A stretch of DNA of 64,000 nucleotides from a virus, in IMG/VR virus record IMGVR_UViG_3300041411_000074, positions 25,365 to 89,364 of that record, one strand, 5' to 3'. Positions 44 to 31,744 of the stretch are shown here, piece by piece. Made by a program: the position numbers and the translations under genes. Position 1 is the stretch's first letter, and each line of letters starts with the position of its first letter. The notes below the pieces were generated by a model, which saw only the letters and a program-made list of their open reading frames with translations, searched no databases and was not told the origin of the DNA.

Positions 44-172
44 GTGACTAAATTCGAACAAGCTAGGCAAAGAGCACGCGAGTTAGATAAACTCCATCCT
101 GACTTGATTCACATGGTTGGGATTAGGTATCTGATTACTAGAGTGAGGAAATATAGTGAACCAAACAATTGA
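44..172 (+). CDS. Small hypothetical protein (42 aa), paralogue of 1434..1592
   Basis: Read manually: GTG start, MTKFEQARQRARELDKLHPDLIHMVGIRY...; below the ORF-track length cutoff. Confidence 0.6.
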   Translation: MTKFEQARQRARELDKLHPDLIHMVGIRYLITRVRKYSEPNN

Positions 173-404
173 AGAAAGATTTCAGTCAATAGAAGACCAA
201 CTTAAAGCAATTAGGAAAGAGCTGGAGGAGAGTTTGGCGAGGTATTATACTCCGTATAAGAACAAACACTATCCATTTAACGCGGATCTAGATCCTAGGA
301 CTGCTACAGGATATGGCCTAAGATATCTTGCACAAGAAGCTGGTGTAGACTTTGATCCGCTAGATACTGATGAACAAGTGAGAAATAAATTGGGGAACAA
401 ATAA
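156..404 (+). CDS. Hypothetical 82-aa protein with a baseplate wedge (gpJ/gpI)-like helical motif
   Basis: GAGG RBS. LDPRTATGYGLRYLAQEAGV...DTDEQVR resembles FDPNSATGIALDNLVAYAGI...ETDEQLR of the baseplate J protein at 49538..50977. Confidence 0.55.
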   Translation: MNQTIEERFQSIEDQLKAIRKELEESLARYYTPYKNKHYPFNADLDPRTATGYGLRYLAQEAGVDFDPLDTDEQVRNKLGNK

Positions 405-577
405 TGAAAGCGTATCAAGTAGTATTGGTTGATGGTGATGGGGCAAGTTTTGAAGAGTTCGTAACTCCTAAAGTGTTTATTGACAAGACAAAGGCTGAAG
501 CTTACAAACAGTTCTTTATTGATGAGGATGCTGGTTGGTGGAAAGTTTATGTTAAGGAAGTGAAGTTGGTAGAATGA
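404..577 (+). CDS. Small hypothetical protein (57 aa)
   Basis: Read manually, MKAYQVVLVDGDG...; start and stop overlap both neighbours. Confidence 0.55.
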   Translation: MKAYQVVLVDGDGASFEEFVTPKVFIDKTKAEAYKQFFIDEDAGWWKVYVKEVKLVE

Positions 578-772
578 AACCAATAATCCTTAAAACACCA
601 GAAGGACTATATGTCTGTGAAATCCCTATTGAGAATGAACCAGAAGACGGAGCATCTGATAGAGAGTGGTGGATATGGGCAGCGACTGGAGTAGGGGCAA
701 GTACGGTGGTGTAACCACATCCCTGTAGAGGCTTATGATAGTTGGGTGAAGGATTGGGAGGAGATGGTGTGA
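574..772 (+). pseudogene. Probable frameshifted small gene (or sequencing indel)
   Basis: Frame 574..714 stops early. Removing one G from the G4 run at 694-697 extends it to a TGA at 770-772 that overlaps the next GTG start. Confidence 0.4.
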
Positions 773-1212
773 GCAGCTTTAAAAGAGAAGAACGTTACAT
801 TGTACTAAAGCTAAGTGATCTTACAGATGATGAGTATAATCACATTGAAGATTACCTTGAAAAATGTATGATTGAACGCCGAGAGTGTGTTGTGGTAGAA
901 TCTGACTGGCCTATTTACGACGAGGTCTGGAAAATGATTGAGAAGATTGAAAATGAAGAGAGAAAAGTTTTGATGGGCGAGGTATCAGTGGAAGACCAAG
1001 CAGTATCATCATTTGCAGAGTTTGATATCATGAATCAATGTGATCCTGAAATTTTCACTGCTAAAGATTGGGAAGAATCTGTTCAAAAAGGTTGGTATAA
1101 TCAGGGTGACGGACGAGCATTGTGGGGGACAAGTACACACTACAACTACGATCATTCTGGATTTAGTAGTCAGCCCGCTAACGCAACACATGTCCATTGG
1201 TTTCCTAAATAA
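769..1212 (+). CDS. Hypothetical protein, apparently a two-domain fusion
   Basis: GGAGG RBS before GTG 769; REERYIVLK...ECVVVESDWP and C-terminal PANATHVHWFPK phage-type motifs. Confidence 0.7.
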   Translation: MSSFKREERYIVLKLSDLTDDEYNHIEDYLEKCMIERRECVVVESDWPIYDEVWKMIEKIENEERKVLMGEVSVEDQAVSSFAEFDIMNQCDPEIFTAKDWEESVQKGWYNQGDGRALWGTSTHYNYDHSGFSSQPANATHVHWFPK

Positions 1213-1227
1213 AACTTGGTGTTTAAA

Positions 1228-1437
1228 ATGATTAAACCAGAAGACCTAGAAATCAGCACATACCCACCCTATAAAACTGGTGGGCAACATGTAGGACTTA
1301 CTCATAGTGGTGTGTTGATTGTACATATACCCACAGGACTTGGTGTTGTGTCTATTACTGAGAGAAGTCAATATAGAAATAAAGAGAGGGCTTTGACAAT
1401 GTTGGAAATATTGGTTGAATTGGAGGGTACAGAATGA
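1228..1437 (+). CDS. Stand-alone GGQ peptidyl-tRNA hydrolase (class I release factor domain 3-like) protein
   Basis: DLEIST...GGQHVG...V.I.HIPTG......ERSQYRNKERA matches the RF-1/ArfB GGQ domain. Confidence 0.85.
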   Translation: MIKPEDLEISTYPPYKTGGQHVGLTHSGVLIVHIPTGLGVVSITERSQYRNKERALTMLEILVELEGTE

Positions 1438-1592
1438 ATAGGTTTGAGGAAGCTAAAGCAAGAGCTAGAGAGTTAGATAAATTACAGCCTGAATACTCAC
1501 ATGCTGTCGGTATAAACTACGATATTGTCAGGTGGAGAAACCACAAAGATGAAAAAGAGGAGACTTATGGCACGACTAGCAAAGAAGACTGA
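1434..1592 (+). CDS. Small hypothetical protein (52 aa), paralogue of 44..172
   Basis: MNRFEEAKARARELDKLQPEYSHAVGINY...; GGAGG RBS, ATGA overlap. Confidence 0.6.
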   Translation: MNRFEEAKARARELDKLQPEYSHAVGINYDIVRWRNHKDEKEETYGTTSKED

Positions 1593-2100
1593 CAATGAGA
1601 TTGTAGCTGAGTGGCTTATTGAGCATCGTTGGAAAGAAACACTAAACTCTGATACTAAGCAAAAGATGCCAGCCTTCGTGGAGGAGGCTGTGTGGGCTGC
1701 TGTCTATATTGTAGCTGGTACACACAACGGTAAAGTTAATATCAGTCCAAAGCTTGTATTCAAGTGCCTCATGCTTGATCCAATTACTTCTGAATCTGTT
1801 AAGACAAGAGAGGTGGGATATGCCATGGGAGATAGTACAGCAAGGCGACTGGCACAAACAGCTAGGTTTGCACTCAAAGGGATTCAAGGTCGAATAGAGG
1901 CATACCAACAACAAATACCAGAAGAGGTTTTGAGGGTTAAAGAAATGGAACGTAAGTTTGTGATTGCTTATTACACAGGGTTTGATAGTCCACTTTATTC
2001 TGAACCACTGCCTCCTATACCTAGTGAGATTATGCAGCTTAGATCAGAGGGTAAGTATCTAGAATATGGTGAAGCTGTAAGGGAGTTCCGAAGTAAGTAA
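1567..2100 (+). CDS. Hypothetical protein
   Basis: GAGGAG RBS before ATG 1567 within the 191-aa ORF. Confidence 0.75.
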   Translation: MARLAKKTDNEIVAEWLIEHRWKETLNSDTKQKMPAFVEEAVWAAVYIVAGTHNGKVNISPKLVFKCLMLDPITSESVKTREVGYAMGDSTARRLAQTARFALKGIQGRIEAYQQQIPEEVLRVKEMERKFVIAYYTGFDSPLYSEPLPPIPSEIMQLRSEGKYLEYGEAVREFRSK

Positions 2101-2136
2101 TTACGCTCGGAGTATAGTAGAGATAATTTAAGTTGA

Positions 2137-3135
2137 GTGTGTATGGCTAACTGGGAAGATTTATTAGGTGGTGAAGAAATACAGTTTGACGGATTTGAAG
2201 GTACAAGTTATGGAGATTTAACTGTCCTTGGGTGGAATGGTAAATATGGCAATGATAAGAAATATATTGTATCTTGTTCTGTATGTAGACAAGATCCTGA
2301 ACTGCACGGATCGGGGTTATTCGCTATGAGTAAGGGACACCTCAATAGAGGTTGTATCCCTTGTGGTTGTGCAGAAAAGCCTAACTGGACAGAGGACCAA
2401 TATAAGGTAAGAGTAAGTAGAGCTTGCATAGAAAGGGGTTTAATCTTCAGAGGTTGGCACGGGGAATATACTACTGCAAACAAAACCAAAGTTAGAGCAG
2501 AGTGTCCAGATCACGGCGATTTCTGGTCTATGACAATTAGTTTCTTTCTTATAAAAGATGGTTACAAAGGTTGTGCTGGATGCTTTGCTTTAAGGATGGG
2601 AGATTATAAAAGAAAAGATGACTCTGTAATGATTAAAATGTTTATGGACACTGGATGTTATGCTGATGGTACAGTATTTACCAGAAGTGAAAGAGTTGAT
2701 AAACACGGACATAAGAAATACTGGTACATGGATTGTCCTGACTGTGGTGAATCAGGTGAAGGACATTTAGTGGGTTTGTATAAGGGTGCTAGGTCTTGTG
2801 CTTGTAGTGGTAATAGACAACAAGAAACCTATATCAATCTTCTAATGGATAAAGAAGATGTAATTGCTATTAAGTTTGGCATTGCAAATCTATCAACTGA
2901 AAGGATTAAACGACAGAATCAGCTATCAATTTATGATGTTGTAAATTATGGTGTCTGGACTTATCCAACAGTTAAAGACTGTAGAGATGCTGAAAGGTAT
3001 TGTCTGAATAACCTAACTACAAAGGTAATCACTAAAGAGGAAATGCCCGATGGGTATACTGAGACTACCTTCCCCTCAAATTTAGAACCTGTGATTCACA
3101 TCTTTGAGGAATATGGTGGTGTGAGAAATATCTAA
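2137..3135 (+). CDS. Putative homing endonuclease (multiple Zn ribbons plus a C-terminal GIY-YIG/T5orf172-like domain)
   Basis: Several CxxC/CxC/CxxHG motifs, then YINL...IAIKFGIA...R..Q...AE; paralogue of 45634..46623. Confidence 0.7.
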   Translation: MCMANWEDLLGGEEIQFDGFEGTSYGDLTVLGWNGKYGNDKKYIVSCSVCRQDPELHGSGLFAMSKGHLNRGCIPCGCAEKPNWTEDQYKVRVSRACIERGLIFRGWHGEYTTANKTKVRAECPDHGDFWSMTISFFLIKDGYKGCAGCFALRMGDYKRKDDSVMIKMFMDTGCYADGTVFTRSERVDKHGHKKYWYMDCPDCGESGEGHLVGLYKGARSCACSGNRQQETYINLLMDKEDVIAIKFGIANLSTERIKRQNQLSIYDVVNYGVWTYPTVKDCRDAERYCLNNLTTKVITKEEMPDGYTETTFPSNLEPVIHIFEEYGGVRNI

Positions 3136-3152
3136 TCCCCTGTTAAAATTAG

Positions 3153-3179
3153 AAGCCCTCCTTGTGAGGGTTTTCTTTT
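3153..3179 (+). terminator. Rho-independent terminator
   Basis: aagccctc-cttgt-gagggttt followed by a T-rich tail, after the + gene block. Confidence 0.8.
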
Positions 3180-3803
3180 GCGTGTCTAGAAAATATGTGA
3201 AAGGTCTATAAGCATTGAAAACACTGGCGCGGTATCAGATTAGCTTAACGCCTTAAGGATTCACCCAATACGAATCATTCTTAAATAATAAAATATCACA
3301 ACAATAATCGTGCCAACTAACTCGCCAGTCATCTGATCAATACCTCTAAAGATATTACCCTTGACATAAACTCTGACAGGTGGATGTAACAAGATAGCTT
3401 GCTTGGGGTGCATATATTTTAACGTTATGTTCAATGGAGCAACTACTCTAAACACCCTAGCACTCATACTGACCAACGTATGTCAACCATAATAATCCAC
3501 TCTGCACAACTAGCACACTTCACTAGCTTAAGTCAATGTATTGTGCAGTTTGTGTGAAGGATTGGCTGAGAGATGGTGGTTAATGTATGTGGAATGGAAT
3601 CGTTACAGGGGAAAGTTGGAGGGATTCGACTACAGGCTTAACATCAGAGATGTCTCGCCCATCCCTTGACAGAGTATTATTAGCCACTTATCACTAACTG
3701 AGAGTACATGTGTACACTAGAATCGATAAGGCTTAGAAGGGATTTTACAGGCTAGAGATTTGAAGGGGTATTGTAAGAGGGTGTGCACTGACTATAAACA
3801 ACT

Positions 3804-3824
3804 ACGTCCCACATTGTGGGACGT
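3804..3824 (-). terminator. Perfect 10-bp inverted repeat, probable terminator of the leftward block
   Basis: acgtcccaca-t-tgtgggacgt just downstream of the last leftward ORF. Confidence 0.55.
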
Positions 3825-3850
3825 TATAATAACCTGCTAGAATGTTTTAC

Positions 3851-4105
3851 TTAACCTAACAACTCAGCTAGAAGGTCATCGTCAAGAATGTCGTCAATTG
3901 TCTGATAAGGAGTGTCATCTAACATCAGCGTAGCTGTCTTTTTATCAATACCAACCTTTGCATAGCTCTTATCACCAGCCTTAATAGCTTCAAGGTGACG
4001 TTTAAGGTTCTTAATCTCTGAGGCTGTTGACATAGGAGAAGCTTGGGTGTTAAAGAACTTACTACCAGTGCAGTCTGTAATGTAGATGCTATGCCAACCA
4101 TTCAT
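3851..4105 (-). CDS. Hypothetical protein
   Basis: AGGA RBS and own promoter; acidic C-terminus. Confidence 0.7.
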   Translation of the reverse strand: MNGWHSIYITDCTGSKFFNTQASPMSTASEIKNLKRHLEAIKAGDKSYAKVGIDKKTATLMLDDTPYQTIDDILDDDLLAELLG

Positions 4106-4142
4106 GATCTTCTTCCTAAATGGTGTTTCGTTCTGATGTCTC

Positions 4143-4171
4143 ATTGTAAGAGAATTCATCTACCCTGTAAA
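4143..4171 (-). promoter_or_regulatory. sigma70-type promoter
   Basis: TTTACA-17-TACAAT with upstream AAATAAAGC. Confidence 0.8.
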
Positions 4172-4187
4172 GCTTTATTTAAAAGAA

Positions 4188-4574
4188 TTACTCAATTAGT
4201 AAACCATACCTTTTCAAAAGTAGTCGCCTAGCAGCCTGCACAGCTTCATTGTCAGGGTGCCCTTCTGCTGTTCTAATCAACTTCTCTTTTCGAGTTAGTA
4301 AGCTATCAGGATGTATTACACTTCCATTTTCTATGGCTTCTCTGTATAAGTCCTCTGCAATAGCTACTTTAGCTTGTAGCTCTATTGTAGTATTGTTCCA
4401 CCATCTCTGATATGTCTTTGTTTGTGGTGCTGATCTAAGCCCTGCATGTATATGACTCAAAACATCATATTTTGTAGGGTAGCCGTTAGCTATTGACCAT
4501 TGAGTAAGATTCTGAACAGGGATTGACATATTTCTAGAAAGCTTCTGGCTGATGTAGATAGTAGAAGTAACCAT
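4188..4574 (-). CDS. Hypothetical protein
   Basis: 128-aa ORF in the operon. Confidence 0.65.
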   Translation of the reverse strand: MVTSTIYISQKLSRNMSIPVQNLTQWSIANGYPTKYDVLSHIHAGLRSAPQTKTYQRWWNNTTIELQAKVAIAEDLYREAIENGSVIHPDSLLTRKEKLIRTAEGHPDNEAVQAARRLLLKRYGLLIE

Positions 4575-4755
4575 TTTTGTTACCTAGCCTGTTCCATTCT
4601 TTAACCAGCGTATCAGCTTTTACTAAGCTCAAACCAACATATTCTCCATCCGTTTCAACAAACCAACCTCTGTCTGACATTTGACCATTGCGAAACTTTT
4701 GTTCAACAATGGCACCAGTATTCTTGCTGTATGTCCAGTAAGTGAAGATTCGCAT
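4534..4755 (-). CDS. Hypothetical protein
   Basis: Start overlaps the upstream stop. Confidence 0.65.
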   Translation of the reverse strand: MRIFTYWTYSKNTGAIVEQKFRNGQMSDRGWFVETDGEYVGLSLVKADTLVKEWNRLGNKNGYFYYLHQPEAF

Positions 4756-4955
4756 TAGTAAATCTCCCCACAGAAAGCGATGAATTCAGCTTCAGTGATC
4801 TTAGTTTCAAGGGCATTCAGGACAGCATCAAACACTTGACTAGGAAGCTTTGGAGTCTTAGCATCTTCAATGAGAACACGTTTCATCTCTTCAACTGGCA
4901 ACTGAGTTGCTGTTTGGATCATTTTGTTGAACAGAGCTTTTTGTGTAGTGTTCAT
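4755..4955 (-). CDS. Hypothetical protein
   Basis: RBS plus a promoter directly upstream. Confidence 0.7.
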   Translation of the reverse strand: MNTTQKALFNKMIQTATQLPVEEMKRVLIEDAKTPKLPSQVFDAVLNALETKITEAEFIAFCGEIY

Positions 4956-4996
4956 GGTCTGTCTTCCTATGCTTGGTTGTTTGTTTCAGTGGGTAC

Positions 4997-5025
4997 ATTA
5001 TCTCTATTTCTGTCCGTAGCTGCAA
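4997..5025 (-). promoter_or_regulatory. sigma70-type promoter
   Basis: TTGCAG-17-GATAAT with upstream AAATAAAGC. Confidence 0.7.
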
Positions 5026-5122
5026 GCTTTATTTTCATATATTTCAAAAGAATTTATAGCTGCTTTTCTATCAGGCACAATCCCTGTTTGTCTCGTGTCT
5101 TTGCTTACTCACCATGGAGATT

Positions 5123-5160
5123 ATTCTACAGGCAAACAAAAGCCAGCACAATAGGCTGGC
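5123..5160 (-). promoter_or_regulatory. Terminator hairpin overlapping a sigma70 promoter
   Basis: gccagc-ctattgt-gctggc-TTTTGTTT hairpin carrying TTGTGC, 17 bp from TAGAAT. Confidence 0.65.
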
Positions 5161-5460
5161 ATAGGATTGTTTAATTCATCCTCACAAAGCCTCAAACCTA
5201 ACAGGCGTGTACTCTGCATAATCTCCTGACATCATAATAAACTGCTCATACATCTCAGAACGTTCTACATGGAGCTATTTTACCATTGTTTCAAGACAGA
5301 ACGAACACTGGACACGTCATCAATAAGGGAATGCAGCTTCTCAACAGCTTCCCACTCAGAGAAAGCACAAACAAGAATCCACAAGTGACCTTTACAGTAG
5401 TTGGTGTCATAATTCATGATATACAAGACTTGTGCTCCTCTGTTGATTTGCTTCAGTAAG

Positions 5461-6114
5461 TTAATAATAGATTAATTCATTAGAGCGGTCAACAACTGTT
5501 TCATCTATTTTTGAGTAGTTTTCATATCGTTCAATCAGAGCTTTTGCTACACGTTTATCTGATTGGCTGTCTGCCAATACGTGTGCTTGATCCAGCTTGA
5601 AAGCCAACCATACTTTGTGTGCCGTATCGGGAGAATCAAACCACCCTAGATTGGTCTGTTTGCCCGTTGTCACTGAGACACACTGAGCCCTATACCTGCT
5701 GGCCTTTTTGTCCCAAGAGACACCTGTAGGCAGTTCTTGCGTGTTGTTAGATCTTTCTAATATAAATAAATTTATTCTCTGTTCAATAAATAAGCATGTC
5801 TCAGGGCTATAAACTTTATTGTCTTTAACTAACAAGTCTTTATCTAGCTGCTTCCCTTGCCAATCCTGTTCTTCCATCCAAGCTTTGAATTTCGAGAAAT
5901 AGAGCCATTCATCACAAACCGAACAGTCTGCATATGTACTGAAGCTAGAGTGGTAAACTTCGGAGTAAGCCCTTTTTAACATGGCACGCCATCTTTCATA
6001 AAATGGGCAGAACCAAGTTTGGAATTGTTTTCCATCAACCATTTTGTTTTGTGTTAAAGAATAGTCCGCATCATTAATACCAACACCGCACACTAGTTTG
6101 TTTCTTTTACGCAT
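5461..6114 (-). CDS. HNH-like/AP2 putative homing endonuclease (GVGINDADY...LDKD family)
   Basis: CPFY.RW..ML.R, LDKD.L..NK.YSPETC and an AP2-like P.GV.W...Y.A...LG.F C-terminus. Confidence 0.7.
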   Translation of the reverse strand: MRKRNKLVCGVGINDADYSLTQNKMVDGKQFQTWFCPFYERWRAMLKRAYSEVYHSSFSTYADCSVCDEWLYFSKFKAWMEEQDWQGKQLDKDLLVKDNKVYSPETCLFIEQRINLFILERSNNTQELPTGVSWDKKASRYRAQCVSVTTGKQTNLGWFDSPDTAHKVWLAFKLDQAHVLADSQSDKRVAKALIERYENYSKIDETVVDRSNELIYY

Positions 6115-6167
6115 TTAATTCTCCAATGATAAAACCCTCCTAATGAGGGTTTAAAGGTTTAGTTTAA

Positions 6168-6416: not shown

Positions 6417-6449
6417 GATGTTGTTTCCTATGTCGGTTAGGTATGGCTT

Positions 6450-6478
6450 ATTATGAATCTATCTGTTCACCTTGTAAA
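6450..6478 (-). promoter_or_regulatory. sigma70-type promoter
   Basis: TTTACA-17-CATAAT with upstream AAATAAAGC. Confidence 0.75.
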
Positions 6479-6488
6479 GCTTTATTTA

Positions 6489-20241: not shown

Positions 20242-21597
20242 TTATTTCTTACTCACAAAGCAAAATTGATTATCACCCACTTCCTCTTTCCATGCATTCA
20301 GCATAATAGAGTGGAGTTTGTCTTCAGCACTTGCACGACAGATGAAACTGTCATGATAAATCAAAAGGTTTTCTCCTTCTTGAATCATGTCTGATACTAC
20401 ACGGGCTGCAATATTGCTGTCAATATTCATCAGTCGCATACCGGCATCAGTATAGAAATAATCTTCAATCAAATAATTATGTTTACGAATAGCCTCACAA
20501 ACGTCTAGCACTTTGGTAGGTTTGATAATCCCAACAAACTTCTTATCTTGATCTTTCTTTTTAGTGTCTTGGAACAGCTTATTACTTACTGCGCTAACTG
20601 CTCCTGTACGATCAATTGCGTTAATAGAGATGAGCAAAGCTACTTTAGCCAGATTGCGCACAGGATCATATGTAGTCAAGCCATACTTTTCTTTGTGGTC
20701 ATCAATCATTTCCTGATCAATCTTTACAATCTCTGAAAGATCAGCACCATATGGCTTGAAGTCTCGACCAATAATATCCCAAACATTGCAGTCATACCCT
20801 CCACTTAGATTCAGCCGTTCTAAACAGAGCATCGGGTGGATTGATGAGTAGTCGAGTTCACAAACAGATTCCCCACCAAATGTCAGATACTTAGAACGAT
20901 ATTTCTCAGGAAGAAGCTGCACGCCGCCACCTGATACAAAGAAGCGTCCAGACTCTTGCAGACTATTGCTGTATACACGTTTGTACTCAACTGTTGCAAC
21001 ACGTTTGCCTTTGAATTCAATACTAGCGTCTTTCAAGCTGTCGTTTAACACTTTAACACCCTCTCTCAGTGTGGTGATACCATTACGTCCACGAAGGGAC
21101 TTGTTTTCACCTGTCTTTCTGTTACGAATTTCAATCATTTCATCAGCCTCAGTGTTAGGCATCAATACTAAATCAATTGTATCCCACAAAGCAAGGTATT
21201 TTTCTTTAAATTGTACAAAAGATTTAACTGTTTTGGTTGGATTACCTTTGGTATCTGTTTCTTTTACAAATCCTTTATAAATGTCAATAAACTGACACTC
21301 CTCTAGATGGTAGAGAAGGGCAGTCACAACACGATAACCAATGTTTTGATCATTAGAGCTATAGTAATTAGAAGATAATGAGATATAGAAGCCTCCAGCT
21401 TTGTTCCTAACTGCCTTAGCACTATTAGTTACAAACCAACGGATAGCTTTCTCCCACCTACCATCTGTAACAGTAAGGAGATACTTCACTACACCCTCAT
21501 ACCATACACTTCTGTGATAATACAAGCTACTATCTGTATTAGTAATCATAGCTTCATACATCTGAAGATCATTCATCTCTCTTAAATCATAAATCAT
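20242..21597 (-). CDS. Pol A / T7-RNAP-superfamily nucleotidyltransferase lacking an exonuclease domain
   Basis: SGRFF, ELDYSSIHP (motif A), RNLAKVALL (motif B), IYHDSF (motif C). Confidence 0.7.
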   Translation of the reverse strand: MIYDLREMNDLQMYEAMITNTDSSLYYHRSVWYEGVVKYLLTVTDGRWEKAIRWFVTNSAKAVRNKAGGFYISLSSNYYSSNDQNIGYRVVTALLYHLEECQFIDIYKGFVKETDTKGNPTKTVKSFVQFKEKYLALWDTIDLVLMPNTEADEMIEIRNRKTGENKSLRGRNGITTLREGVKVLNDSLKDASIEFKGKRVATVEYKRVYSNSLQESGRFFVSGGGVQLLPEKYRSKYLTFGGESVCELDYSSIHPMLCLERLNLSGGYDCNVWDIIGRDFKPYGADLSEIVKIDQEMIDDHKEKYGLTTYDPVRNLAKVALLISINAIDRTGAVSAVSNKLFQDTKKKDQDKKFVGIIKPTKVLDVCEAIRKHNYLIEDYFYTDAGMRLMNIDSNIAARVVSDMIQEGENLLIYHDSFICRASAEDKLHSIMLNAWKEEVGDNQFCFVSKK

Positions 21598-23063: not shown

Positions 23064-23258
23064 TCATTTGGCATCAGCCTCGTAAGCATCATAGACGTGT
23101 ACAAGCATACCGTTCTCAACAAGTTTATAGAAATTCATGTTATGCTGAGTGGCTTCGTGTACAGAACCTTTGTTGGTTTCCATAAAGGAACGAGCATCAG
23201 AGTCAGTCCAGTGTTTGCCATGCAGTTGAAAGTGGTTACTTCTGAATTTAATGTTCAT
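23064..23258 (-). CDS. Hypothetical protein, first gene of the leftward block
   Basis: AAGGAG RBS and promoter. Confidence 0.7.
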   Translation of the reverse strand: MNIKFRSNHFQLHGKHWTDSDARSFMETNKGSVHEATQHNMNFYKLVENGMLVHVYDAYEADAK

Positions 23259-23284
23259 GGTGTGTCTCCTTGATTGATGTGCCT

Positions 23285-23313
23285 AGGATAACCTCATCAC
23301 CAACCCCTGTCAA
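23285..23313 (-). promoter_or_regulatory. Leftward sigma70-type promoter of a divergent pair
   Basis: TTGACA-17-TATCCT. Confidence 0.75.
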
Positions 23314-23348
23314 CCCCATTTCGAAAAATCTTCTGACAGAGTGTAGAT

Positions 23349-23413
23349 AAATCTACCAAACAAATTTGCTAGACAAATCTACTGAATGAATTTACCAAAT
23401 GAATTTGCCCAAG
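23349..23413. repeat. Five tandem imperfect 13-bp repeats
   Basis: aaatctaccaaac|aaatttgctagac|aaatctactgaat|gaatttaccaaat|gaatttgcccaag. Confidence 0.75.
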
Positions 23414-23460
23414 GGGTTTCCCTAAATAGATCGCCTAGAATAATATTTTTAAATCATTTC

Positions 23461-23489
23461 TTGACAGGTGGAGGGATGTGGTGGAGAAT
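23461..23489 (+). promoter_or_regulatory. Rightward sigma70-type promoter of a divergent pair
   Basis: TTGACA-17-GAGAAT. Confidence 0.75.
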
Positions 23490-23526
23490 TGGTGTATCTG
23501 AAAAGCAACGTAGAGAGGAAAATATA

Positions 23527-24369
23527 ATGGAAATTAAAGCTTACGCCTGTAAACACTGTGAATCAATCTACAAGACAGCGCAGAAAGCATCTGCCTGTGA
23601 AAAGAAATGTGTAGCCCGTATTGCAGAGGAGAAGACTGAGGAGGAACGTCAGGCAAACCTTCAAACTCTTGTGAATTACGTTCGTCTGAACGCAGAGTCT
23701 ATAGAAGATATCTGCCGAATGTCTGAGGAAGTAAGCCTCAAGTTGTTCCCCAAATCCTCTATCAAGAAGATGAAGCTTCGTGTTTCTTACGCACCACATG
23801 CTAGTAACTCTCATTCTGCACCTCTCGGTGAATTTGAGAATTGGGGACGCAAGGAAGGTAAACCTACGGGATACCCAGCACTTAGAGGTTCAATTACTGT
23901 AGTGTACAACAAGGAACCTAAAGGTTTTTCTTCAAGTACCTTCAATTCTCGTGATGGTATTTGTGGTATTCACACAGGGGATGGTGGCTATCGGTCAGGG
24001 GATGGTGGCTATACTGTGGGTTATGACGTAACCCTCTGGTTGTCTGATTTTCCTAAGATCAAAGCTGCAATTGAGGCTAAACAAAAAGAGATTGATAGTT
24101 ATGAAATTTTTCGTTCCAAACTTTCTGGCGAATACATCGACCAAGTGAGCGCAGATGCTGAGATTAATGCTGCCAAGTCCAATATCGAAGACTTTGAAGA
24201 TGAAATCCGAAAACTACGTGAGCTGATCGCTTGTGAGCAAGGTATTATCAAGGACAAAAAAGAAAACTACTCAACCCCTAAACAAGAAATTCTTGACAAA
24301 GAGTATGAGAAGACTTCTAATGATTTTGGTCTGAGTCGTGGTCAGCAATCATTGACAAGCATCTGGTAA
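23527..24369 (+). CDS. Hypothetical protein with an N-terminal Zn finger and C-terminal coiled coil
   Basis: GAGG RBS; YACKHC...CEKKC; SNSHSAP.G...NWG motif. Confidence 0.8.
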   Translation: MEIKAYACKHCESIYKTAQKASACEKKCVARIAEEKTEEERQANLQTLVNYVRLNAESIEDICRMSEEVSLKLFPKSSIKKMKLRVSYAPHASNSHSAPLGEFENWGRKEGKPTGYPALRGSITVVYNKEPKGFSSSTFNSRDGICGIHTGDGGYRSGDGGYTVGYDVTLWLSDFPKIKAAIEAKQKEIDSYEIFRSKLSGEYIDQVSADAEINAAKSNIEDFEDEIRKLRELIACEQGIIKDKKENYSTPKQEILDKEYEKTSNDFGLSRGQQSLTSIW

Positions 24370-24975
24370 AACCTCTTGACCCCTCACAAACAATGTGACA
24401 AGATACTGTGACTGAAGCGCTTACGAGTAAGCTAATGTAAGCAAATAAATTTGACTAATTATTAATGTAATGCTATGCAGCGAAAGCTATTCGAAGAGTG
24501 GCGGCTGTGGGAGAGATGGGATGATTTCAGGATATGTGTTAGCAAGGCAAACTGCTGTAGAAATGCCTAATGGTGCTCGTAGTGAGCTAGGTTATACACT
24601 TTTGGATGGTGTTGGCGTATTTCACTCTATTGAAGAGGTGTACGAAGTGATCAAGGACTTGAACTTACCTCTTGGCTGGGTAGCTATGTCGGTGGACCAA
24701 CTTCTTCCGGGTTATATGCTTCCAAAGGAGAATAAATAATGAGAGTATGTCAGTCAATTCAAGAGCTTCTTGATGAAGAGCTAAGCCAAATGTGGGAAGG
24801 TTTGGACTATGAAGGTCTGAATGTGGAAGCTACGAAAGAGTGGTTTGCAGGGACAGATATTTTTATTCAGATTCTTGATAAACTTAAAGAAGAAAATAAG
24901 CACCTATCATGATTGATGAACATATGCAGCAATTAATTGAGATGGAAAAATAAATTGAATGGGTGGGAGGAATAA

Positions 24976-25209
24976 GTGATGAATTGCAAATGGAGACATG
25001 TTGACCTAGGCTGGCGGTGTGGTACAATCTACGAAATGTGTGATGAAGCTGTTCAGGTTGCGAAATTGTTGAACACACAAGTATCATTTACTTTCAACGG
25101 TGTTCGTGTTAATGTCAGCAACCAAAGTGATGTTGAAGGTGTTTCTTTTCAAGCAATGGAAGCTGTAAAGAATAAAACTGATGCAGTCTTTGGGAAGGGG
25201 TGTCACTAA
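24976..25209 (+). CDS. Hypothetical protein, paralogue of 11464..11742
   Basis: GGAGG RBS; VSFTFNG motif. Confidence 0.65.
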   Translation: MMNCKWRHVDLGWRCGTIYEMCDEAVQVAKLLNTQVSFTFNGVRVNVSNQSDVEGVSFQAMEAVKNKTDAVFGKGCH

Positions 25210-25514
25210 TGGCTATGATTAATATCACTAAAGATTATCGCAAGTATTCTAGTGAAGAACTTCGGTCACTTGCATATTCAGGCTTGCTTGAGTGTAACGG
25301 GTATGATCTTGACTCGTTCCTTGAATACATCTTTCAGGACATGCACAGCGAACAAGACTTGAAAGAAGCCTTAGAGGAAGGTAAGAAGGAAGCACTTGAC
25401 AGTGAAATTAGTATTTGTTCAGAATGTGAAGAAGAGATTTATGGCTGAACATCCTTGCTATTCTTGAAGCAATTTGATTAATATTCTTTGCAGGGTGTTG
25501 GAGGGGAGAAGAGC

Positions 25515-27272
25515 GTGAGTAACAAATACGGCATTGATACATCCCATGAACACAAGACAGGATGTCCAAGGTGTATTCGAAAAGGTGAGGACAGGTCCAA
25601 GAATAATTTGCACGTCTATGGAGAAGGTAAGGGAGCTTTCTGTTGGGCGTGTGAGTTTACTATTCCAAGTGATGAGTGGCTTGCCGAACATGGCGAAATT
25701 AAAGATGAAGAAGAGGAGTTTGATTACATGGGTTCTGAGTTTAACCAAGAGATTCACAATAAATTGAAAGAAAACACGTCAGTAGACCCTAAAGGTTGGA
25801 GGGGTCTACGCCGTGATACTTGTGCCTACTTTGGTGTTCGTCACTCCTTCAACACTGAAACAGGTGAGATTGAAAAACAATATTATCCAACTACCCAGAA
25901 CTACGAGTTGTCGGGTTATAAGGTTAGGCATGAACCAAAGGATTTTGGGGCAATTGGCATCACTGGTAAACAATGTGAATTATTTGGACAATTCCGGTTT
26001 CAGGATGGCAAGGGCAAATATATTCTGTTGGTAGCTGGCGAAATCGACGCCTTGAGTGCCTACCAGCTCCTTGGTGATTATCAGAAATCCAAAGGCTTTG
26101 AACCTATTCCTGTAGTTTCTAGTACTATTGGTGAAGGAGGAAGTGCCAAACAGGTGCAACAGCAGTATGCATTTCTGGACCAATGGGAGCGAGTCCATAT
26201 TTGTTATGACAACGATAAAGCTGGCAAGGAGGCTGCTGAGAAAGTGGCTAAAGTTTTGCCTAAAGGTAAAGCATTTATTGTCAACCTAAGCTTGAAAGAT
26301 TGTAATGAGTATCTTGTGGCAGGGAAGAGTAAGGAATTTATCAAAGCTTTCTATGATGCCAAGGGCTATACCCCGAACGGTATTGTTGGTAGTGGTGAGC
26401 TTTACCAAAAAATCCTTGATGAGGTGGAAGCTGACAAAATCCCTTTTCCACCATTTATGAAAAAGCTCAATGAAATGACTGCTGGTGGTCTGAGCTTGGG
26501 GAAGCTGTGTAACATCGGCGCCGCCACAGGATTAGGGAAGACAGTTTATGTGGACTCAATTATTTACCATCTTATTTTCAACAGTCCATACCGTGTTGGT
26601 GTGGTGAGTATGGAACTTAACAGTGGTCAGTATGGTCTATCTATGTTGTCTCGACATGTTGGTCGGAAGATTGCCAACATTCAGGATAAGGAAGAGCGTA
26701 GTAACTATTTGAAGAGTGATTACGTCCAAGAGAAGCAAAAGGAGTTGTTCTTTAAAGCGGACGGCTCACACCGTTGGCACTTGGTCGATGATCGGGATGG
26801 TTCAATCGAGGATATGAAATCTCTCGTTGAACAGTTGGTTATTAGCTGCGAGTGTAAGGTAATTGTACTTGATCCATTGCAAGACATTCTGGATGGTATG
26901 AGCAACGAAGATCAAGCTTTGTTCCTGAAGTGGCAGAAAGGTTTGATTAAGAGCCACAACATGAGTTTCATTAACATCAATCATGTCCGAAAAAGTGGCA
27001 ATTCTTCGCAATCAAACTCTAACGGCGGGATGATTACCGAAGAGGATTTTGCTGGCTCAAGTACAATTATGAAATCTGCTGCACTGAATATTCTCCTAGT
27101 GAGAGACAAGATGAATGAAGACCCTGTGATCCGCAACACTACCCGAGCTTTTCTTAGTAAGAATCGGGATAATGGTATTACAGGCCCAGCAGGTTCATAT
27201 TACTACAATAATGAAACCCACCAACTTCAAGATTTTGATGAATGGTTAGAGGAAAATCCACAGGAGTTTTAA
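25515..27272 (+). CDS. T7 gp4-like DNA primase-helicase
   Basis: Zn finger CPRC..CWAC, TOPRIM (GEIDA, YDND, KDCNE), Walker A GAATGLGKT, SF4 motifs. Confidence 0.95.
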   Translation: MSNKYGIDTSHEHKTGCPRCIRKGEDRSKNNLHVYGEGKGAFCWACEFTIPSDEWLAEHGEIKDEEEEFDYMGSEFNQEIHNKLKENTSVDPKGWRGLRRDTCAYFGVRHSFNTETGEIEKQYYPTTQNYELSGYKVRHEPKDFGAIGITGKQCELFGQFRFQDGKGKYILLVAGEIDALSAYQLLGDYQKSKGFEPIPVVSSTIGEGGSAKQVQQQYAFLDQWERVHICYDNDKAGKEAAEKVAKVLPKGKAFIVNLSLKDCNEYLVAGKSKEFIKAFYDAKGYTPNGIVGSGELYQKILDEVEADKIPFPPFMKKLNEMTAGGLSLGKLCNIGAATGLGKTVYVDSIIYHLIFNSPYRVGVVSMELNSGQYGLSMLSRHVGRKIANIQDKEERSNYLKSDYVQEKQKELFFKADGSHRWHLVDDRDGSIEDMKSLVEQLVISCECKVIVLDPLQDILDGMSNEDQALFLKWQKGLIKSHNMSFININHVRKSGNSSQSNSNGGMITEEDFAGSSTIMKSAALNILLVRDKMNEDPVIRNTTRAFLSKNRDNGITGPAGSYYYNNETHQLQDFDEWLEENPQEF

Positions 27273-28355
27273 ATGGCAATTAAGTATTTAGAAATTGGCC
27301 AAGTATTAGAAAATAAACAAGGTGAGAAGTATGTAATTGAAGGTCTTGACCACTGTAAATCAGTTAAGGTTAGATTCCTCTCTAATAATTCTGTAAAATA
27401 CACTACTGCAAATTATGCTTATCGTGGCATCGTCCGCATGGAAAGGGTTCTTGTCGGTGAACAATATTTGGATAAGAATGGGGAAACAATTACTGTAGTT
27501 GGCAAGACTAAACAAGATGATATTACAATCCAATGGGATGATGGCGAAACGCGCTCGACAAATGCCTATAGGATTGAGAATAGGCTTGTGATTCGGACCA
27601 ATGACAATAAGCATGTTAATCCAACCGTAAAAGTTGGGCAAATATACGTTAATCGCCAAGGTTCAGAAATCAAGGTTCTTGAATACGAAAATTCAACCAA
27701 GATTTTAGTGGAGATTGGCGAAAGAAAGTACCAGCAATATGTACACGCAGGGAATCTGATATCACTAAATGTACATGACAAGTATGCACCATCTGTTGCA
27801 GGTAAAGGTATTTTTGGAGATGCAGAAGTTGATGTCAAATCTCAAGTCTATACTTCTTGGGCTGGGATGTTAAAACGCTGCTATACTTTTTATGATGATA
27901 AACCAAGGGCAAGAATCAACTATGAAGGCTGTGAAGTCAGGGAAGATTTTCTGTATCTTCCAGATTACATGGCTTGGTATGAGAAACAAATTGTTCAGCC
28001 AAAGTGGCATCTTGACAAAGATCTTTTGGTTCCCGGTAATAAGATCTACAGCCCCGATACGTGTGTGTTTTTACCAAGAGCTTTGAATACGTTCTTAACA
28101 GTCAGGGGTAATGAACGCGGACCATATCCAATCGGCGTTACTTACCATGAACGTCTAGGGAAATATGAGGCTTGCTGTAATCGGGATGGTAAGAGTGTTT
28201 ATCTTGGGCTTTATTTAAATCCTGAAGATGCCTTTGAAGCTTACAAGAAAGAGAAGGAATCTTACGCGAAAGATCTTGCAAAGCGTTGGGAAGGGGTGAT
28301 AGACTCTCGGGCTTGTGAAGCACTGATGAATTATAGGGTTTTAATTACCGATTAG
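27273..28355 (+). CDS. HNH-like/AP2 putative homing endonuclease with three N-terminal repeats
   Basis: Three G(Q/E)..(N/K).G..I.V modules; W.GMLKRCY, LDKDLL..GNKIYSPDTC, AP2-like end. Confidence 0.7.
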   Translation: MAIKYLEIGQVLENKQGEKYVIEGLDHCKSVKVRFLSNNSVKYTTANYAYRGIVRMERVLVGEQYLDKNGETITVVGKTKQDDITIQWDDGETRSTNAYRIENRLVIRTNDNKHVNPTVKVGQIYVNRQGSEIKVLEYENSTKILVEIGERKYQQYVHAGNLISLNVHDKYAPSVAGKGIFGDAEVDVKSQVYTSWAGMLKRCYTFYDDKPRARINYEGCEVREDFLYLPDYMAWYEKQIVQPKWHLDKDLLVPGNKIYSPDTCVFLPRALNTFLTVRGNERGPYPIGVTYHERLGKYEACCNRDGKSVYLGLYLNPEDAFEAYKKEKESYAKDLAKRWEGVIDSRACEALMNYRVLITD

Positions 28356-28364
28356 GAGTAACAA

Positions 28365-30476
28365 ATGCTAGGCGAAAATGAGATTATTCTGGACATTGAG
28401 GCAGATGGATTTATTTTTGAATCCACGAAGGTTTGGACTGTATGTGCAACAAACATCCAAAGTGGTGAAAAGATTAAGGTAAATCCCTTTAAAGATGAAT
28501 CTGCCAAGAGTCAGCTAATCTCATTCATCTTTAAAAAACCTAATCCAACTATTGGCTTTCACTTCGGTCTGGGCTATGACATGTTCGTTCTTCAGAACTT
28601 GTTGGATATTAAGTTCACAGTTGGTAAAGACACAATTGAAGGTCAACCTGTTCAGTTTGTCGATACACTTTATTTGAGTATGTTCCTCAATCCTGATCGT
28701 ATCGGACATAGTGTTGAAGCCTTTGGTGAAGTTCTCGGATTGCCTAAAATTGATTGGCGAGAAAAAGCAATTGAACTGGGACTAATTGAACGTAACGCAC
28801 CAAAAGGTGCTGAGTTTATGCAGTGGCATCCAGAAATGGACGTGTACTGTGAACGTGACGTTGATGTAAACGTAATGTTGTATCAATATCTTCAAAAGGA
28901 ATGGCAGGAGGTTTACGGGAAACCTTTCAGCATTACTGATGCTTACAAATGTGGACAGAAGTCTTTCTATTTAATGTCTTGTCAGGAACTTACAGGATTT
29001 AAGTTTGATGTTGAAGGTGGTATTAAGCTTAAGGAACGGATTGGTGTAATGATGGAAGAGATCCGGGCAGAGGTAGAGCCTAAACTTCCTCCTCGTGCAT
29101 TGAAGAAGTCCGAAGAAAAGTATTACAGTATGCCCGCTAAGCCATGGAAAAAATCAGGAGACTTCTCGTCGTCTTGGGAAAAGTTTGTAGAAAAGCACAA
29201 TGGTGTTTTAGATACCAACACAGGTTTGTGGGACTTCTATGGTGAAAAGTATCCAGTAGTGGCAGGAGCTATGCTGAATATTAAGTTGCCAATGGAGATG
29301 GCTAACCAAGATCAGATGAAAGATTGGTTTCTTGAACAGGGTTGGAAACCTTCGCTGTGGAATTTCCAACGTGGGCCTGATGGTAAGCCAATGCGAGATC
29401 CTAAGACACGCCAACTTATCCAAACAAGTCCTAAGATTCAGGAACAGGGTAAGATTTGCCCCAATCTCATGAAGTTGGAAGGTGATATTGTTAAACAAGT
29501 TGTGAAGTGGCTGAGCTTGCGTAACCGACAATCTGTATTGGAGGGCTGGCTTACAAATGATCGCCTGCAAATGGATGGGCGTATTGGTGCAGGGCGTACA
29601 GGTATTGCTGCGACACATCGCCAAAAGCATCGTACTTGCGTAAACGTCCCGAAGGCTTCTGAGAAGGTTTTGCTTGGCAAAGAGTTCCGTTCTCTGTGGA
29701 TTTCGGGAGATGGGATGCTTATTGCTGCCGGGGATGCCGCTGCGTTAGAGGGACGAGTTCAGGGGCACTATTGCTATAAATATGATGATGGAGCAACGGC
29801 TGAAGAATTGTTGAAAGGCGATGTGCACAGTAAGAATGCGTTTGCTTTCTTTGGACATGAATCTGAAATCCAACAATTTGATTTGCACAGCCCTGACTTT
29901 AATAAAGAACATCCTAAATTCAAGCCTTTCCGAGATAAGAGTAAAAACGGATATTATGCCTGTATGTATGGCTGTGCTGGCCCTAAATTAGCCAGTACAT
30001 TAGGCTTGCCAGTTAAGATGGGAAATGATAAACTTGAGGCATTCTGGGATGCTAATCCAGCCACTAAGGCACTCAAAGAGAACCTAGAAAAGTATTGGAC
30101 AAGTACAGGACGTGAGAAGTATCTTCCTGCGATTGATGGCCGTATGCTTTGCACTCGCAAGAAGTCTGCACTGCTTAATACAATTTTCCAAAGTTGTGGT
30201 GGTATTTCAATGGATTATGCGCTATGCTTTATGGACGCTTGGCTTGGTGGTTTGAAGTGGAAAGATCGTAAACCTTACTACATCTACAAAGGTCATGTAG
30301 TGATGCGTGTTTGCTATCAACACGATGAGGTAGAATTTGAGTGTGAGGAAGAAATTGCAGAGGAAATTTCTCGAATGATTGAAAAAGCTATTGAAAAAGC
30401 TGGACTCTATTTGAAACTTAAAGTACCATTAGCGGGCGAAGGCAAGACGGGAAAATCGTGGTGCGAAGTGCATTGA
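28365..30476 (+). CDS. Family A DNA polymerase with 3'-5' exonuclease
   Basis: ExoI DIEAD, ExoIII YCERDV, motif A DAAALEGR, motif B RDKSKNGYYACMYG, motif C HDE. Confidence 0.95.
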   Translation: MLGENEIILDIEADGFIFESTKVWTVCATNIQSGEKIKVNPFKDESAKSQLISFIFKKPNPTIGFHFGLGYDMFVLQNLLDIKFTVGKDTIEGQPVQFVDTLYLSMFLNPDRIGHSVEAFGEVLGLPKIDWREKAIELGLIERNAPKGAEFMQWHPEMDVYCERDVDVNVMLYQYLQKEWQEVYGKPFSITDAYKCGQKSFYLMSCQELTGFKFDVEGGIKLKERIGVMMEEIRAEVEPKLPPRALKKSEEKYYSMPAKPWKKSGDFSSSWEKFVEKHNGVLDTNTGLWDFYGEKYPVVAGAMLNIKLPMEMANQDQMKDWFLEQGWKPSLWNFQRGPDGKPMRDPKTRQLIQTSPKIQEQGKICPNLMKLEGDIVKQVVKWLSLRNRQSVLEGWLTNDRLQMDGRIGAGRTGIAATHRQKHRTCVNVPKASEKVLLGKEFRSLWISGDGMLIAAGDAAALEGRVQGHYCYKYDDGATAEELLKGDVHSKNAFAFFGHESEIQQFDLHSPDFNKEHPKFKPFRDKSKNGYYACMYGCAGPKLASTLGLPVKMGNDKLEAFWDANPATKALKENLEKYWTSTGREKYLPAIDGRMLCTRKKSALLNTIFQSCGGISMDYALCFMDAWLGGLKWKDRKPYYIYKGHVVMRVCYQHDEVEFECEEEIAEEISRMIEKAIEKAGLYLKLKVPLAGEGKTGKSWCEVH

Positions 30477-30566
30477 TCTGGAAAAGAAATTGAAAATACC
30501 GCTGTACAAACCCAATAAATCATGCGAGAATAGATAGTACAAATTAAATTGTAAAGGAGAGAAATA

Positions 30567-30950
30567 ATGAAATTTAAAAGTGGCGACAAGGTTGTACGGA
30601 TTAAGTCTGATTGGGATGTGGTTCGTGTTGGTGGAGTTTATATTGTTCGATATCAGGAGACTGATGGTGTATACTTGAGTGATCTGCAAGGTAAGGTACT
30701 TGTAGGCTGTTATGATCCGGCATACTTTCAGCTTCTTGTAGAAGTGTCAGCTACGCCAGTAACACCAAACTACGCAGCAGCCTTCAATACTTGGATGGAC
30801 GACTATGTGAACAATCCACAAGCATACGAGAATTCCCATGAAAGTGCAGTACGCCATTTGAAAGAGAAGCTTAATGGTGAAGAGCCGTCTTATGGTGAAG
30901 TTTGTGCAGAAGTGCTTGTAAATTATATTAATAAATTGGAGAATAAATAA
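30567..30950 (+). CDS. Hypothetical protein
   Basis: AGGAG RBS; SH3-like FKSGDKV start. Confidence 0.75.
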   Translation: MKFKSGDKVVRIKSDWDVVRVGGVYIVRYQETDGVYLSDLQGKVLVGCYDPAYFQLLVEVSATPVTPNYAAAFNTWMDDYVNNPQAYENSHESAVRHLKEKLNGEEPSYGEVCAEVLVNYINKLENK

Positions 30951-31121
30951 TGAAAACTATCTATACCTATCTCGTAGCAGATGACAGCAACGTATATGCT
31001 GAAACAAATACACGCGAAGATGCAAGGAATTACTTGCGTGATATTAAAGCAACAGGTAATAAAGCTGTTAAGATATTCCGTGAAGAATACGTTCGTATTG
31101 CTTATACACAGGTACGTTAAC

Positions 31122-31388
31122 ATGGGAAAGATTACCATACGTGAAACAAGCTCTGTTGATAACGGAACTTCCTCTTCACACTCAGAAGTAGAGTATATCT
31201 TTGAGGATAGCTCGGATTACTTCGCTTGGAGTGAGCAGAAAGCAGAAGCTATTAACAACGCTGTTAAAGCTTATGTTGGTGGCTTGGATTTTGGTAGTGC
31301 ATTTGAAACACCACTTGAGGAAGAGTCAGCAGATAACGTGACAGAGATTAAAGTGGCTAAGAAGATTAAAGAGCCGACTAAGCATTAA
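31122..31388 (+). CDS. Acidic hypothetical protein
   Basis: Internal ATG of the 135-aa ORF. Confidence 0.6.
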   Translation: MGKITIRETSSVDNGTSSSHSEVEYIFEDSSDYFAWSEQKAEAINNAVKAYVGGLDFGSAFETPLEEESADNVTEIKVAKKIKEPTKH

Positions 31389-31402
31389 TTAAGGAGAAAT
31401 GT

Positions 31403-31744
31403 GTGTTTAATTATAGTCCTGATGAAACAAAGATTTTGATTGATGGGAAGAAGATTGAAGGCTTGGCTAACAAGTTTCTGACTAACGCAAGCGGACGAGG
31501 CTTTACGCTCACCCTACATGGTGGTAGTCAGTGGCATAAATATCTTGACGGTCTTGTGTTCAGCAAGTACAGTAAAACTGTTAATGTATCTGTGGAAATT
31601 GCTTTGACTGATGAAGACGTGCAGTCCGACTTGTTCGATATTAAAGGTGACTTTATTTTGGTCAGTTGGAGTTACAATCTTAGTTCGGAAACTTTCCCAG
31701 AAGTAAGTTATAGCTTTGTGCATAACAGTCCAATCTATAGTTAA
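31403..31744 (+). CDS. Truncated tail-tube-like paralogue in the replication block
   Basis: YSPDE...GLA, TLTLHGGS...L..L and DLF motifs align with the tube-family proteins at 56658-58243. Confidence 0.6.
   Translation: MFNYSPDETKILIDGKKIEGLANKFLTNASGRGFTLTLHGGSQWHKYLDGLVFSKYSKTVNVSVEIALTDEDVQSDLFDIKGDFILVSWSYNLSSETFPEVSYSFVHNSPIYS

Follow-up and report, generated by a model that had tools for sequence, protein, structure and literature searches.

Unassembled tail proteins can be recognised inside the bacterial cell: the published abstracts describe DSR2 as a bacterial defence that senses unassembled tail tube protein and DSAD1 as a small phage-encoded blocker, both in connection with Bacillus phages. 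For the baseplate, the structure paper on phage Bas63 (PMC12609058) describes domains D1 and D2 of wedge protein 1 as resembling domains D1 and D3 of wedge protein 2 and as forming the core bundle and aperture. Among release factors, a review on their evolution (PMC6514570) states that the C-terminal basic helix of ArfB senses the empty mRNA channel. Here we analyse single-domain relatives of such parts encoded by a Felix-O1-like myophage with a genome of 89,364 bp (IMG/VR virus record IMGVR_UViG_3300041411_000074). Its bases 25365-89364, a stretch of 64,000 nucleotides, are referred to as the window, and positions are those of the window unless the whole genome is named. The genes concerned encode a tail-tube-like protein of 113 amino acids (aa), an 82-aa wedge-like protein, an 88-aa copy of a baseplate J domain and a 69-aa protein limited to the GGQ domain of a release factor.

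We conclude, with a probability of about 0.7, that these are independent accessory genes, each encoding one core domain, and that their products most likely act as separate competitive binders. The identity of the domains, the intact reading frames, the purifying selection, the patchy spread among relatives, and the location in a mosaic-cassette region and in a replication array are established. A sequence-only reading of the window had noticed that single parts of tail proteins of this phage are also encoded on their own, away from the structural genes, an observation that our analysis bears out and extends to the 88-aa baseplate J domain copy.

The closest named relative is Pseudomonas phage vB_PsaM_M1 (OP714164.2, 89,387 bp, Ounavirinae; M1 below), with a DNA polymerase identity of 68%. 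The minus strand from about 44 to 64 kb carries the tail genes, namely those of the sheath, three tube-family proteins, baseplate J and a DUF2612 wedge protein. The open reading frames (ORFs) of the 82-aa, GGQ and 113-aa proteins lie on the plus strand in two non-tail gene arrays: an accessory array at the window start, which is one plus-strand array, and a replication array from 23.4 to 43.4 kb. Eleven records of relatives were compared, ten of them (G001-G010) of 78-93 kb and 89-100% complete, and the last (G011) of 52.7 kb and 61% complete.

The tube-like gene of the replication array

The gene at 31403..31744 (plus strand), located between the DNA polymerase gene (28365..30476) and that of a gp2.5-like single-stranded-DNA-binding protein (SSB; 31824..32522), encodes a cut-down paralogue of the tail tube, as the sequence-only reading had proposed. 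An AlphaFold2 (AF2) model of the 113-aa protein, obtained from 15 sequences, reached a predicted local distance difference test score (pLDDT) of 82 and a predicted template modelling score (pTM) of 0.73. Comparison with solved structures by VIA-align gave, among the matches listed, a Z of 12.2 with the XM1 tube (108 of the 113 residues aligned, root-mean-square deviation (rmsd) 2.8), a Z of 12.2 with the PhiTE tube (100 residues aligned) and Z values of 11.1-11.3 with the Sf14 and Bas63 tubes; the matches so listed were all tail-tube, Hcp or injection-system tube chains. Foldseek returned three matches at E ≤ 0.001, all of them PhiTE tail tube chains with a TM score of 0.60-0.64.

The relation to the tubes of the phage itself was confirmed at the sequence level. 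The three full-length tube-family genes (minus strand, 56658..57155, 57155..57652 and 57710..58243) are mutual paralogues and strong members of phrog_280 (E 1.4e-32, 9.1e-31 and 4.4e-23), a family that is hit weakly by the 113-aa ORF (E 7.6e-5) and likewise by 6 of the 15 members of its own family. When the profile of the 113-aa family was aligned with the three tubes (hhalign), the N-termini fell in register with E-values of 2.6e-5, 2.6e-5 and 2.1e-4, over 25-29 columns only. Alignment A6 showed the mini family to be colinear with the tubes, with a gap of about 27 residues after the G-F-A-D-G-T-F region and with the last ~40 residues absent. The missing insertion is presumably the hairpin that lines the lumen. 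The long insertion or hairpin and the C-terminal extension would be needed for building a stacked tube.

Among 1.84 billion entries, 13 representatives of the 113-aa family were found, all of 103-120 aa, in clusters of 1-6 members, none of which is named; one member (P0115) lies on an 88.7-kb contig. The best BFVD matches of the protein are uncharacterised proteins of 111-115 aa from other large myophages, such as Cronobacter phage CR9. A tblastn search of phages with the 113-aa and 82-aa ORFs gave chance-level matches only (E 0.7). The sole DNA homologue of the 113-aa gene, in the relative L003, is 52% identical and lies amid genes for an exonuclease, an HNH endonuclease and a phosphoesterase.

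Four copies of the 113-aa protein were predicted to associate side by side, strand 21-31 packing against strand 88-99, with an interaction prediction score from aligned errors (ipSAE) of 0.88 versus 0.14 for the highest-scoring control out of three; separate runs shared at least 97% of their contacts and the partner pLDDT was at least 87. In the calibration of the tool, 20 of 30 solved homo-pairs attained this level, as did 1 of 23 single chains; these counts are rough here, since the calibration used two copies and the tool's own alignments. This predicted self-interface may reflect a memory of solved tube and Hcp rings, as an alternative to a real interface. The insertion and the C-terminal extension are gone, but the side-by-side self-interface is predicted as kept, which goes against the "precise loss of assembly elements" put forward in the sequence-only reading.

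These results bear directly on the possibility that the 113-aa protein, and perhaps the wedge-derived ones, truly belong to the tail or help to assemble it, for example as a tube cap, initiator ring or chaperone whose gene happens to lie away from the late module. The phrog_280 label "virion structural protein", the tube fold over the whole protein and the predicted self-association, similar to that of a tube or Hcp ring, are what this explanation would lead one to expect. However, the copy is dispensable for the tail of the lineage, as no small-ORF match was found in 10 of 10 relatives or in M1, where the same three tube genes are present; the gene lies on the replication strand between the DNA polymerase and SSB genes, and amid DNA-metabolism genes in L003; and the protein is devoid of the insertion and C-terminal extension found in all three real tubes. 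We consider a role as a tail part improbable and retain that of a competitive binder.

Two other candidates were rejected for this protein. A DNA clamp, for which the site between polymerase and SSB and the possible rings could speak, is unlikely: the protein is acidic, with 14 Asp/Glu versus 9 Lys/Arg, and matches no DNA-binding family. A PilZ-like fold was raised by two PilZ chains in Foldseek, but tube and Hcp chains fill the VIA-align matches listed. As for the neighbouring gene directly after the tube copy, the gp2.5-like SSB (31824-32522; phrog_112, 7.4e-11) has an acidic C-terminal tail, and no M1 homologue of it was detectable at the tblastn level.

Wedge-like and GGQ genes of the accessory array

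On sequence grounds, the 88-aa ORF is a stronger wedge-derived case than the 82-aa gene. Located on the plus strand at 25145..25411 of the whole genome, it starts 219 nt before the window, of which positions 1..47 hold its 3′ end, and encodes a stand-alone copy of one domain of baseplate J, or wedge 2. Its full length aligns with the J domain. It matches residues 328-382 of the phage's own baseplate J protein (49538..50977, minus strand; Pfam Baseplate_J 1.4e-13) with 53% identity over 55 aa (BLASTP, E 8e-17) and, among PDB sequences, residues 312-389 of 9zd7 gp88 (4.1e-13) and residues 301-376 of Bas63 wedge protein 2 (6.2e-7). All-against-all BLASTP of the 579 genome ORFs revealed it as the only non-structural paralogue of a virion protein at E <1e-3. 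An orthologue in L055 is 77% identical.

The domain was found at 568 places in 566 phage records, almost all baseplate-annotated, so second copies of the J domain are rare in named phages. The J domains of the ten relatives are nearly identical to one another and the 88-aa copy is about 40-53% identical to each, which marks it as an old retained paralogue and not a fresh fragment. The 157-aa neighbour of this ORF matches it in a single pairwise comparison (E 0.002) and may, on that basis, carry a diverged copy of the J domain; no PDB or Pfam match was obtained for it. The C-terminal half of the 157-aa protein recurs, at 62% identity, in P0072, where it follows the coiled-coil helix of the 82-aa family described below.

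The gene at 156..404 (plus strand) encodes an 82-aa protein made of a coiled-coil helix and a wedge domain 1-like motif, assigned from AF2, VIA-align and Pfam Tail_P2_I. In the AF2 model (pLDDT 81), helices span residues 5-35, 52-61 and 72-80; the first is a conserved N-terminal coiled-coil helix, and residues ~42-82 form a C-terminal helix-loop-helix. Residues 42-82 superposed on residues 51-89 of Bas63 wedge 1 (Z 5.8, rmsd 1.7, 23% identity), on a phi812 baseplate chain (Z 5.7), on residues 67-104 of the Pam3 wedge protein gp22 (Z 5.5, 29%) and on a pyocin R2 baseplate chain (Z 3.8, 34%). These superpositions cover 38-41 residues with 17-34% identity, and a Z below 8 can reflect a common arrangement. 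The phage's own wedge 1-like gene lies on the minus strand at 48779..49528 (Pfam DUF2612 8.3e-21); it and the J gene hit phrog_587 and phrog_6, "baseplate wedge subunit". We give homology between the 82-aa motif and wedge domain 1 a likelihood of about two-thirds.

The family of the 82-aa protein comprises 77 homologues, which have the near-invariant N-terminal coiled-coil helix in common and differ in their C-termini. In relatives, the helix is joined to at least five unrelated C-termini, the most common being a Cys-rich type ending in C-x-C...C (alignment A2; L004-L011 and L051-L058). This 30-residue N-terminus with varied C-terminal modules looks like a modular display scaffold. In 14 comparisons of the N-helix (a 15th row, L009b, being a separate C-motif ORF), the synonymous rate (dS) over the first 30 codons was 0.39-3.1; conservation thus lies at the protein level, and the idea of a conserved DNA element such as a promoter or recombination site was rejected.

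The third gene of this region (1228..1437, plus strand) encodes the 69-aa GGQ-only release-factor domain protein, and here the domain assigned by the sequence-only reading was confirmed. The protein scored 57.8 bits against Pfam RF-1 (PF00472; cut-off 35 bits, E 1.2e-15), or 56.4 bits in a whole-genome scan, and matched phrog_20323, "RF-1 domain peptide chain release factor", over profile positions 1-62 of 73 (1.6e-11). It aligns with domain 3 of release factors (RF) of known structure, at residues 233-292 of RF2 and 193-251 of RF1 (E 4.5e-12). The GGQ loop is kept: in an alignment of 24 homologues (68-87 aa), no variation was seen at G19 and Q20, and G18 is nearly invariant. No other release-factor domain was found in the protein, nor an ArfB-type linker and C-terminal basic helix; it ends at residue 69, within the helix that follows the β-sheet of the domain.

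The GGQ-only family is not new, since it is already catalogued in PHROGs and GenBank. Relatives of the gene occur in 109 phage records of many genera (tblastn), many of them Pseudomonas phages of ~95-100 kb in which GenBank names the product "peptide chain release factor 1". Of 47 IMG/VR viral loci with a relative, 21 have an ORF of ≤90 aa, ORF starts being taken mechanically. A literature search found no publication on phage GGQ-only proteins or their function, and the word "phage" has 0 occurrences in the main text of the review on release-factor evolution PMC6514570. In one relative of 89.9 kb (L005, 5995-6207), an in-frame TGA falls exactly at the first Gly codon of the GGQ; the remaining ORF is intact and 88% identical. 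This TGA could be a sequencing error, the sign of a dead copy or a site of read-through.

Concerning translation starts, the intact ribosome-binding sites claimed earlier were recovered for two genes, with GAGGA 6 nt upstream of the GTG at 156 and AAGGAG 6 nt upstream of the GTG at 31403; the ATG at 1228 is preceded by a weak GGTG-like site only. Two small plus-strand ORFs accompany these genes. A 42-aa ORF (44..172), for which neither Pfam nor PHROG gave a match, runs into the start of the 82-aa gene, and a counterpart stands immediately before the coiled-coil gene in L004 and L057 also. Its paralogue, a 52-aa ORF (1434..1592; 51-54% identical over 39 aa), overlaps the GGQ stop codon (ATGA). 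The 52-aa ORF was considered as a detached ArfB-like tail of the GGQ protein and rejected: it is not beside GGQ in the relatives' loci and has no family match.

Comparison of the relatives' loci showed that the stretch from a hydrolase gene to a CapR-type endonuclease gene is a patchwork of small cassettes that replace one another. This highly mosaic region spans 23147-28499 of the whole genome (L060; window 1-3135), and relatives hold differing subsets of its small genes. Its borders are, on one side, the genes for a PhaZ-like alpha/beta hydrolase (Abhydrolase_1 7.7e-29) and, after it, a DUF7831 protein, and on the other side that for the CapR-domain endonuclease. The genome contains two families of endonuclease-like paralogues, one of five members (whole genome 30825-38540 and 52637-53719) and one of two (27501-28499 and 70998-71987); M1 has three copies of the CapR-type endonuclease. 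These paralogues likely drive the mosaicism. Elsewhere in the window, a second polymerase-like ORF of 451 aa (20242-21597, minus strand) lies far from the replicative PolA, and its apparent M1 counterpart is annotated "DNA polymerase". Megablast of window regions against phages and a metagenome scan with alignment A1 gave no match.

Selection, distribution and possible function

To the sequence-only reading the genes were selected rather than decaying, and the ratio of nonsynonymous to synonymous substitution rates (dN/dS) agrees. For the GGQ gene it was 0.10-0.25 in 7 of 9 pairs, one of the other pairs being saturated and one blocked by the in-frame TGA. The 82-aa gene gave 0.165/0.803 = 0.21 against L051, the 88-aa gene 0.142/1.198 = 0.12 against L055 and the 157-aa gene 0.256/1.417 = 0.18 against L051. 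The neighbouring hydrolase gene, used as a control, gave 0.06-0.08 over 0.68-0.98, that is 0.07-0.10.

Such values matter for the idea that the tail-derived mini genes are functionless debris, remnants of duplication or of recombination that homing endonucleases set off. Their setting would suit that origin, with a hypervariable cassette region adjoining CapR-type endonuclease genes, many endonuclease paralogues in the genome and patchy presence among relatives. The genes themselves do not look like debris: dN/dS is 0.12-0.21 where orthologues exist, the ORFs are intact with Shine-Dalgarno sites at the 156 and 31403 starts, the fragments do not follow the order in which they occur in baseplate J, the 88-aa copy is old and kept at ~40-53% identity to the J domains of the lineage, and the 13 representatives of the 113-aa family all fall within 103-120 aa. 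Debris has, in our judgement, little likelihood, and independent selected genes remain the preferred explanation.

The distribution of the genes speaks to their independence. The tube copy was found in 0 of the 10 near-complete relatives (G011 left out), in which only the N-termini of tube frames of 168-179 aa were matched. The GGQ gene occurs in 6 of 11 relatives and is absent from all five records G007-G011, which carry the coiled-coil gene family. The wedge-motif C-terminus is present in 2 of 11 (L051, and L009, where it forms an ORF by itself), and one relative of the 11 has the J-domain copy, G001-G010 being matched by full-size J frames (258-496 aa) only. None of the 82-aa, GGQ and 113-aa ORFs has a tblastn match in M1. 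The components thus fail to co-occur, and the claim of the sequence-only reading that they form a system is not upheld. That the three genes make one coordinated set of mimics for counter-defence or competition is disfavoured and has only a very small chance of being right: all three are single-domain, intact and selected, and the 82-aa and GGQ genes are ~0.8 kb apart on the same strand and neighbours in the loci of 6 relatives too, but GGQ is missing from 5 of 5 relatives with the coiled-coil family, the tube copy is missing from 10 of 10 relatives having either other gene and lies 30 kb off in a different gene array, and GGQ-only genes occur without the others across the 109 phage records of many genera.

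The proteins fall into two classes. In the tail class, the 113-aa protein represents the β-sandwich core of the tube, the 82-aa protein a coiled-coil stalk bearing a wedge domain 1-like motif of ~40 residues, and the 88-aa protein a whole J domain. The GGQ gene belongs to a different class and copies domain 3 of bacterial RF1/RF2, a domain of host type. Each mini protein would keep one interaction surface of its parent and be unable to join the parent machine; for a protein with one surface kept and no incorporation, a competitive binder is the most likely role. The tail-derived copies could then bind whatever recognises unassembled tube or wedge protein, either a host sensor or an assembly intermediate of a rival phage. 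The GGQ domain would act at the peptidyl-transferase centre, the option we favour, where it could either hydrolyse peptidyl-tRNA on stalled ribosomes after recruitment by other means or merely occupy the centre.

Several points weigh against this interpretation. Scans of the sequence for promoters and terminators stayed at chance (13 found versus 11.6 expected, and 33 versus 27.1, respectively). For the tube copy, the genomic context comes from one relative, L003, and comparison with this only DNA homologue gave no dN/dS value, dS being saturated; moreover, a ring-type side interface predicted as kept could make the 113-aa protein a real assembly part or a tube cap, and not an inert decoy. We know of no route by which a GGQ domain without tail or codon-reading domains reaches the ribosome. 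Finally, the 82-aa protein has a wedge motif of small length and weak statistics. The wedge core assigned to 156..404 by the sequence-only reading is moderately supported: besides the superposition on four baseplate chains, the 82-aa ORF matches Pfam Tail_P2_I below the cut-off (15.5 versus 20.6 bits, E 0.016), and hhalign paired its residues 43-65 with residues 69-91 of the phage's own baseplate J at E 0.0033, but with a probability of only 9.8%. Against it, Foldseek of the model gave E-values all above 1, and a hidden Markov model of the motif ranked J fourth, with E 2.4, among 1175 ORFs. The last match came in two pieces (J residues 70-91 and 278-285), a pattern that would agree with the insertion of a domain into J.

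A broader conjecture, which we put forward tentatively and regard as doubtful, is that tailed phages keep structural-domain decoys. These would be stand-alone, selected copies of single tail domains, made before the tail genes are expressed; in this phage they would comprise the self-associating tube core and the wedge domains borne on the coiled-coil stalk. They would soak up host immune sensors triggered by unassembled tube or wedge protein, or sabotage the building of baseplate and tube in co-infecting relatives, with the coiled-coil stalk and its interchangeable heads serving as a display scaffold. If tail-derived mini proteins are indeed decoys or assembly poisons, they would give phages a simple, recurrent means of evading structural-protein sensors or keeping out rivals. 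Sequence alone would then suffice to detect such genes, by looking beyond the late module for small ORFs paralogous to virion genes of the same phage. With its swappable C-terminal modules, the coiled-coil helix is a natural experiment on the role of each head. GGQ-only proteins are widespread among phages, and whether they act in peptide release or as blockers of the peptidyl-transferase centre bears on the control of translation by phages. Even if no phenotype were to be attached to these genes, the results show that copies of virion genes, each the size of a domain, arise and are retained in accessory regions.

Comparison with known systems

A literature search found no publication on truncated tube or wedge paralogues as decoys. 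The nearest functional parallel is with DSR2 and DSAD1, where a tube protein is sensed by a defence and a small phage-encoded protein blocks it; in the available abstracts, DSR2 is documented for the tubes of Bacillus siphophages, another lineage, and DSAD1 is not called a tube paralogue.

The GGQ protein resembles domain 3 of RF1 and RF2 (PF00472) as a member of the catalytic-domain family in which the GGQ and the flanking release-factor motifs are retained. Like ArfB/YaeJ, it is without codon-reading domains; unlike ArfB, the 69-aa protein also lacks the linker and the C-terminal basic helix.

Among the Bas63 wedge proteins (PDB 9NDY), wedge 1 is gp7, or P2 gpI-like, and wedge 2 is gp6, or baseplate J. 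In wedge 2, the counterpart of the 88-aa ORF is one complete domain, probably D3 judging from the residue numbers; in wedge 1, residues 51-89 are those on which the last 40 residues of the 82-aa protein superpose. In contrast to the wedge proteins, the mini genes encode single domains or motifs, alone or on a coiled-coil stalk, and lie on the opposite strand ~50 kb from the baseplate genes.

With the PhiTE, Bas63 and Sf14 tubes (phrog_280) and Hcp of the type VI secretion system, the 113-aa protein shares a fold over its whole length (Z 12.2-11.1 over 100-108 residues, among the matches listed). It also has the N-terminal motif common to the phage's own tubes and a predicted side-by-side self-interface. 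It differs from tube proteins of 164-176 aa by the loss of an insertion of ~27 residues and of ~40 C-terminal residues, and, unlike them, is encoded among replication genes and absent from close relatives.

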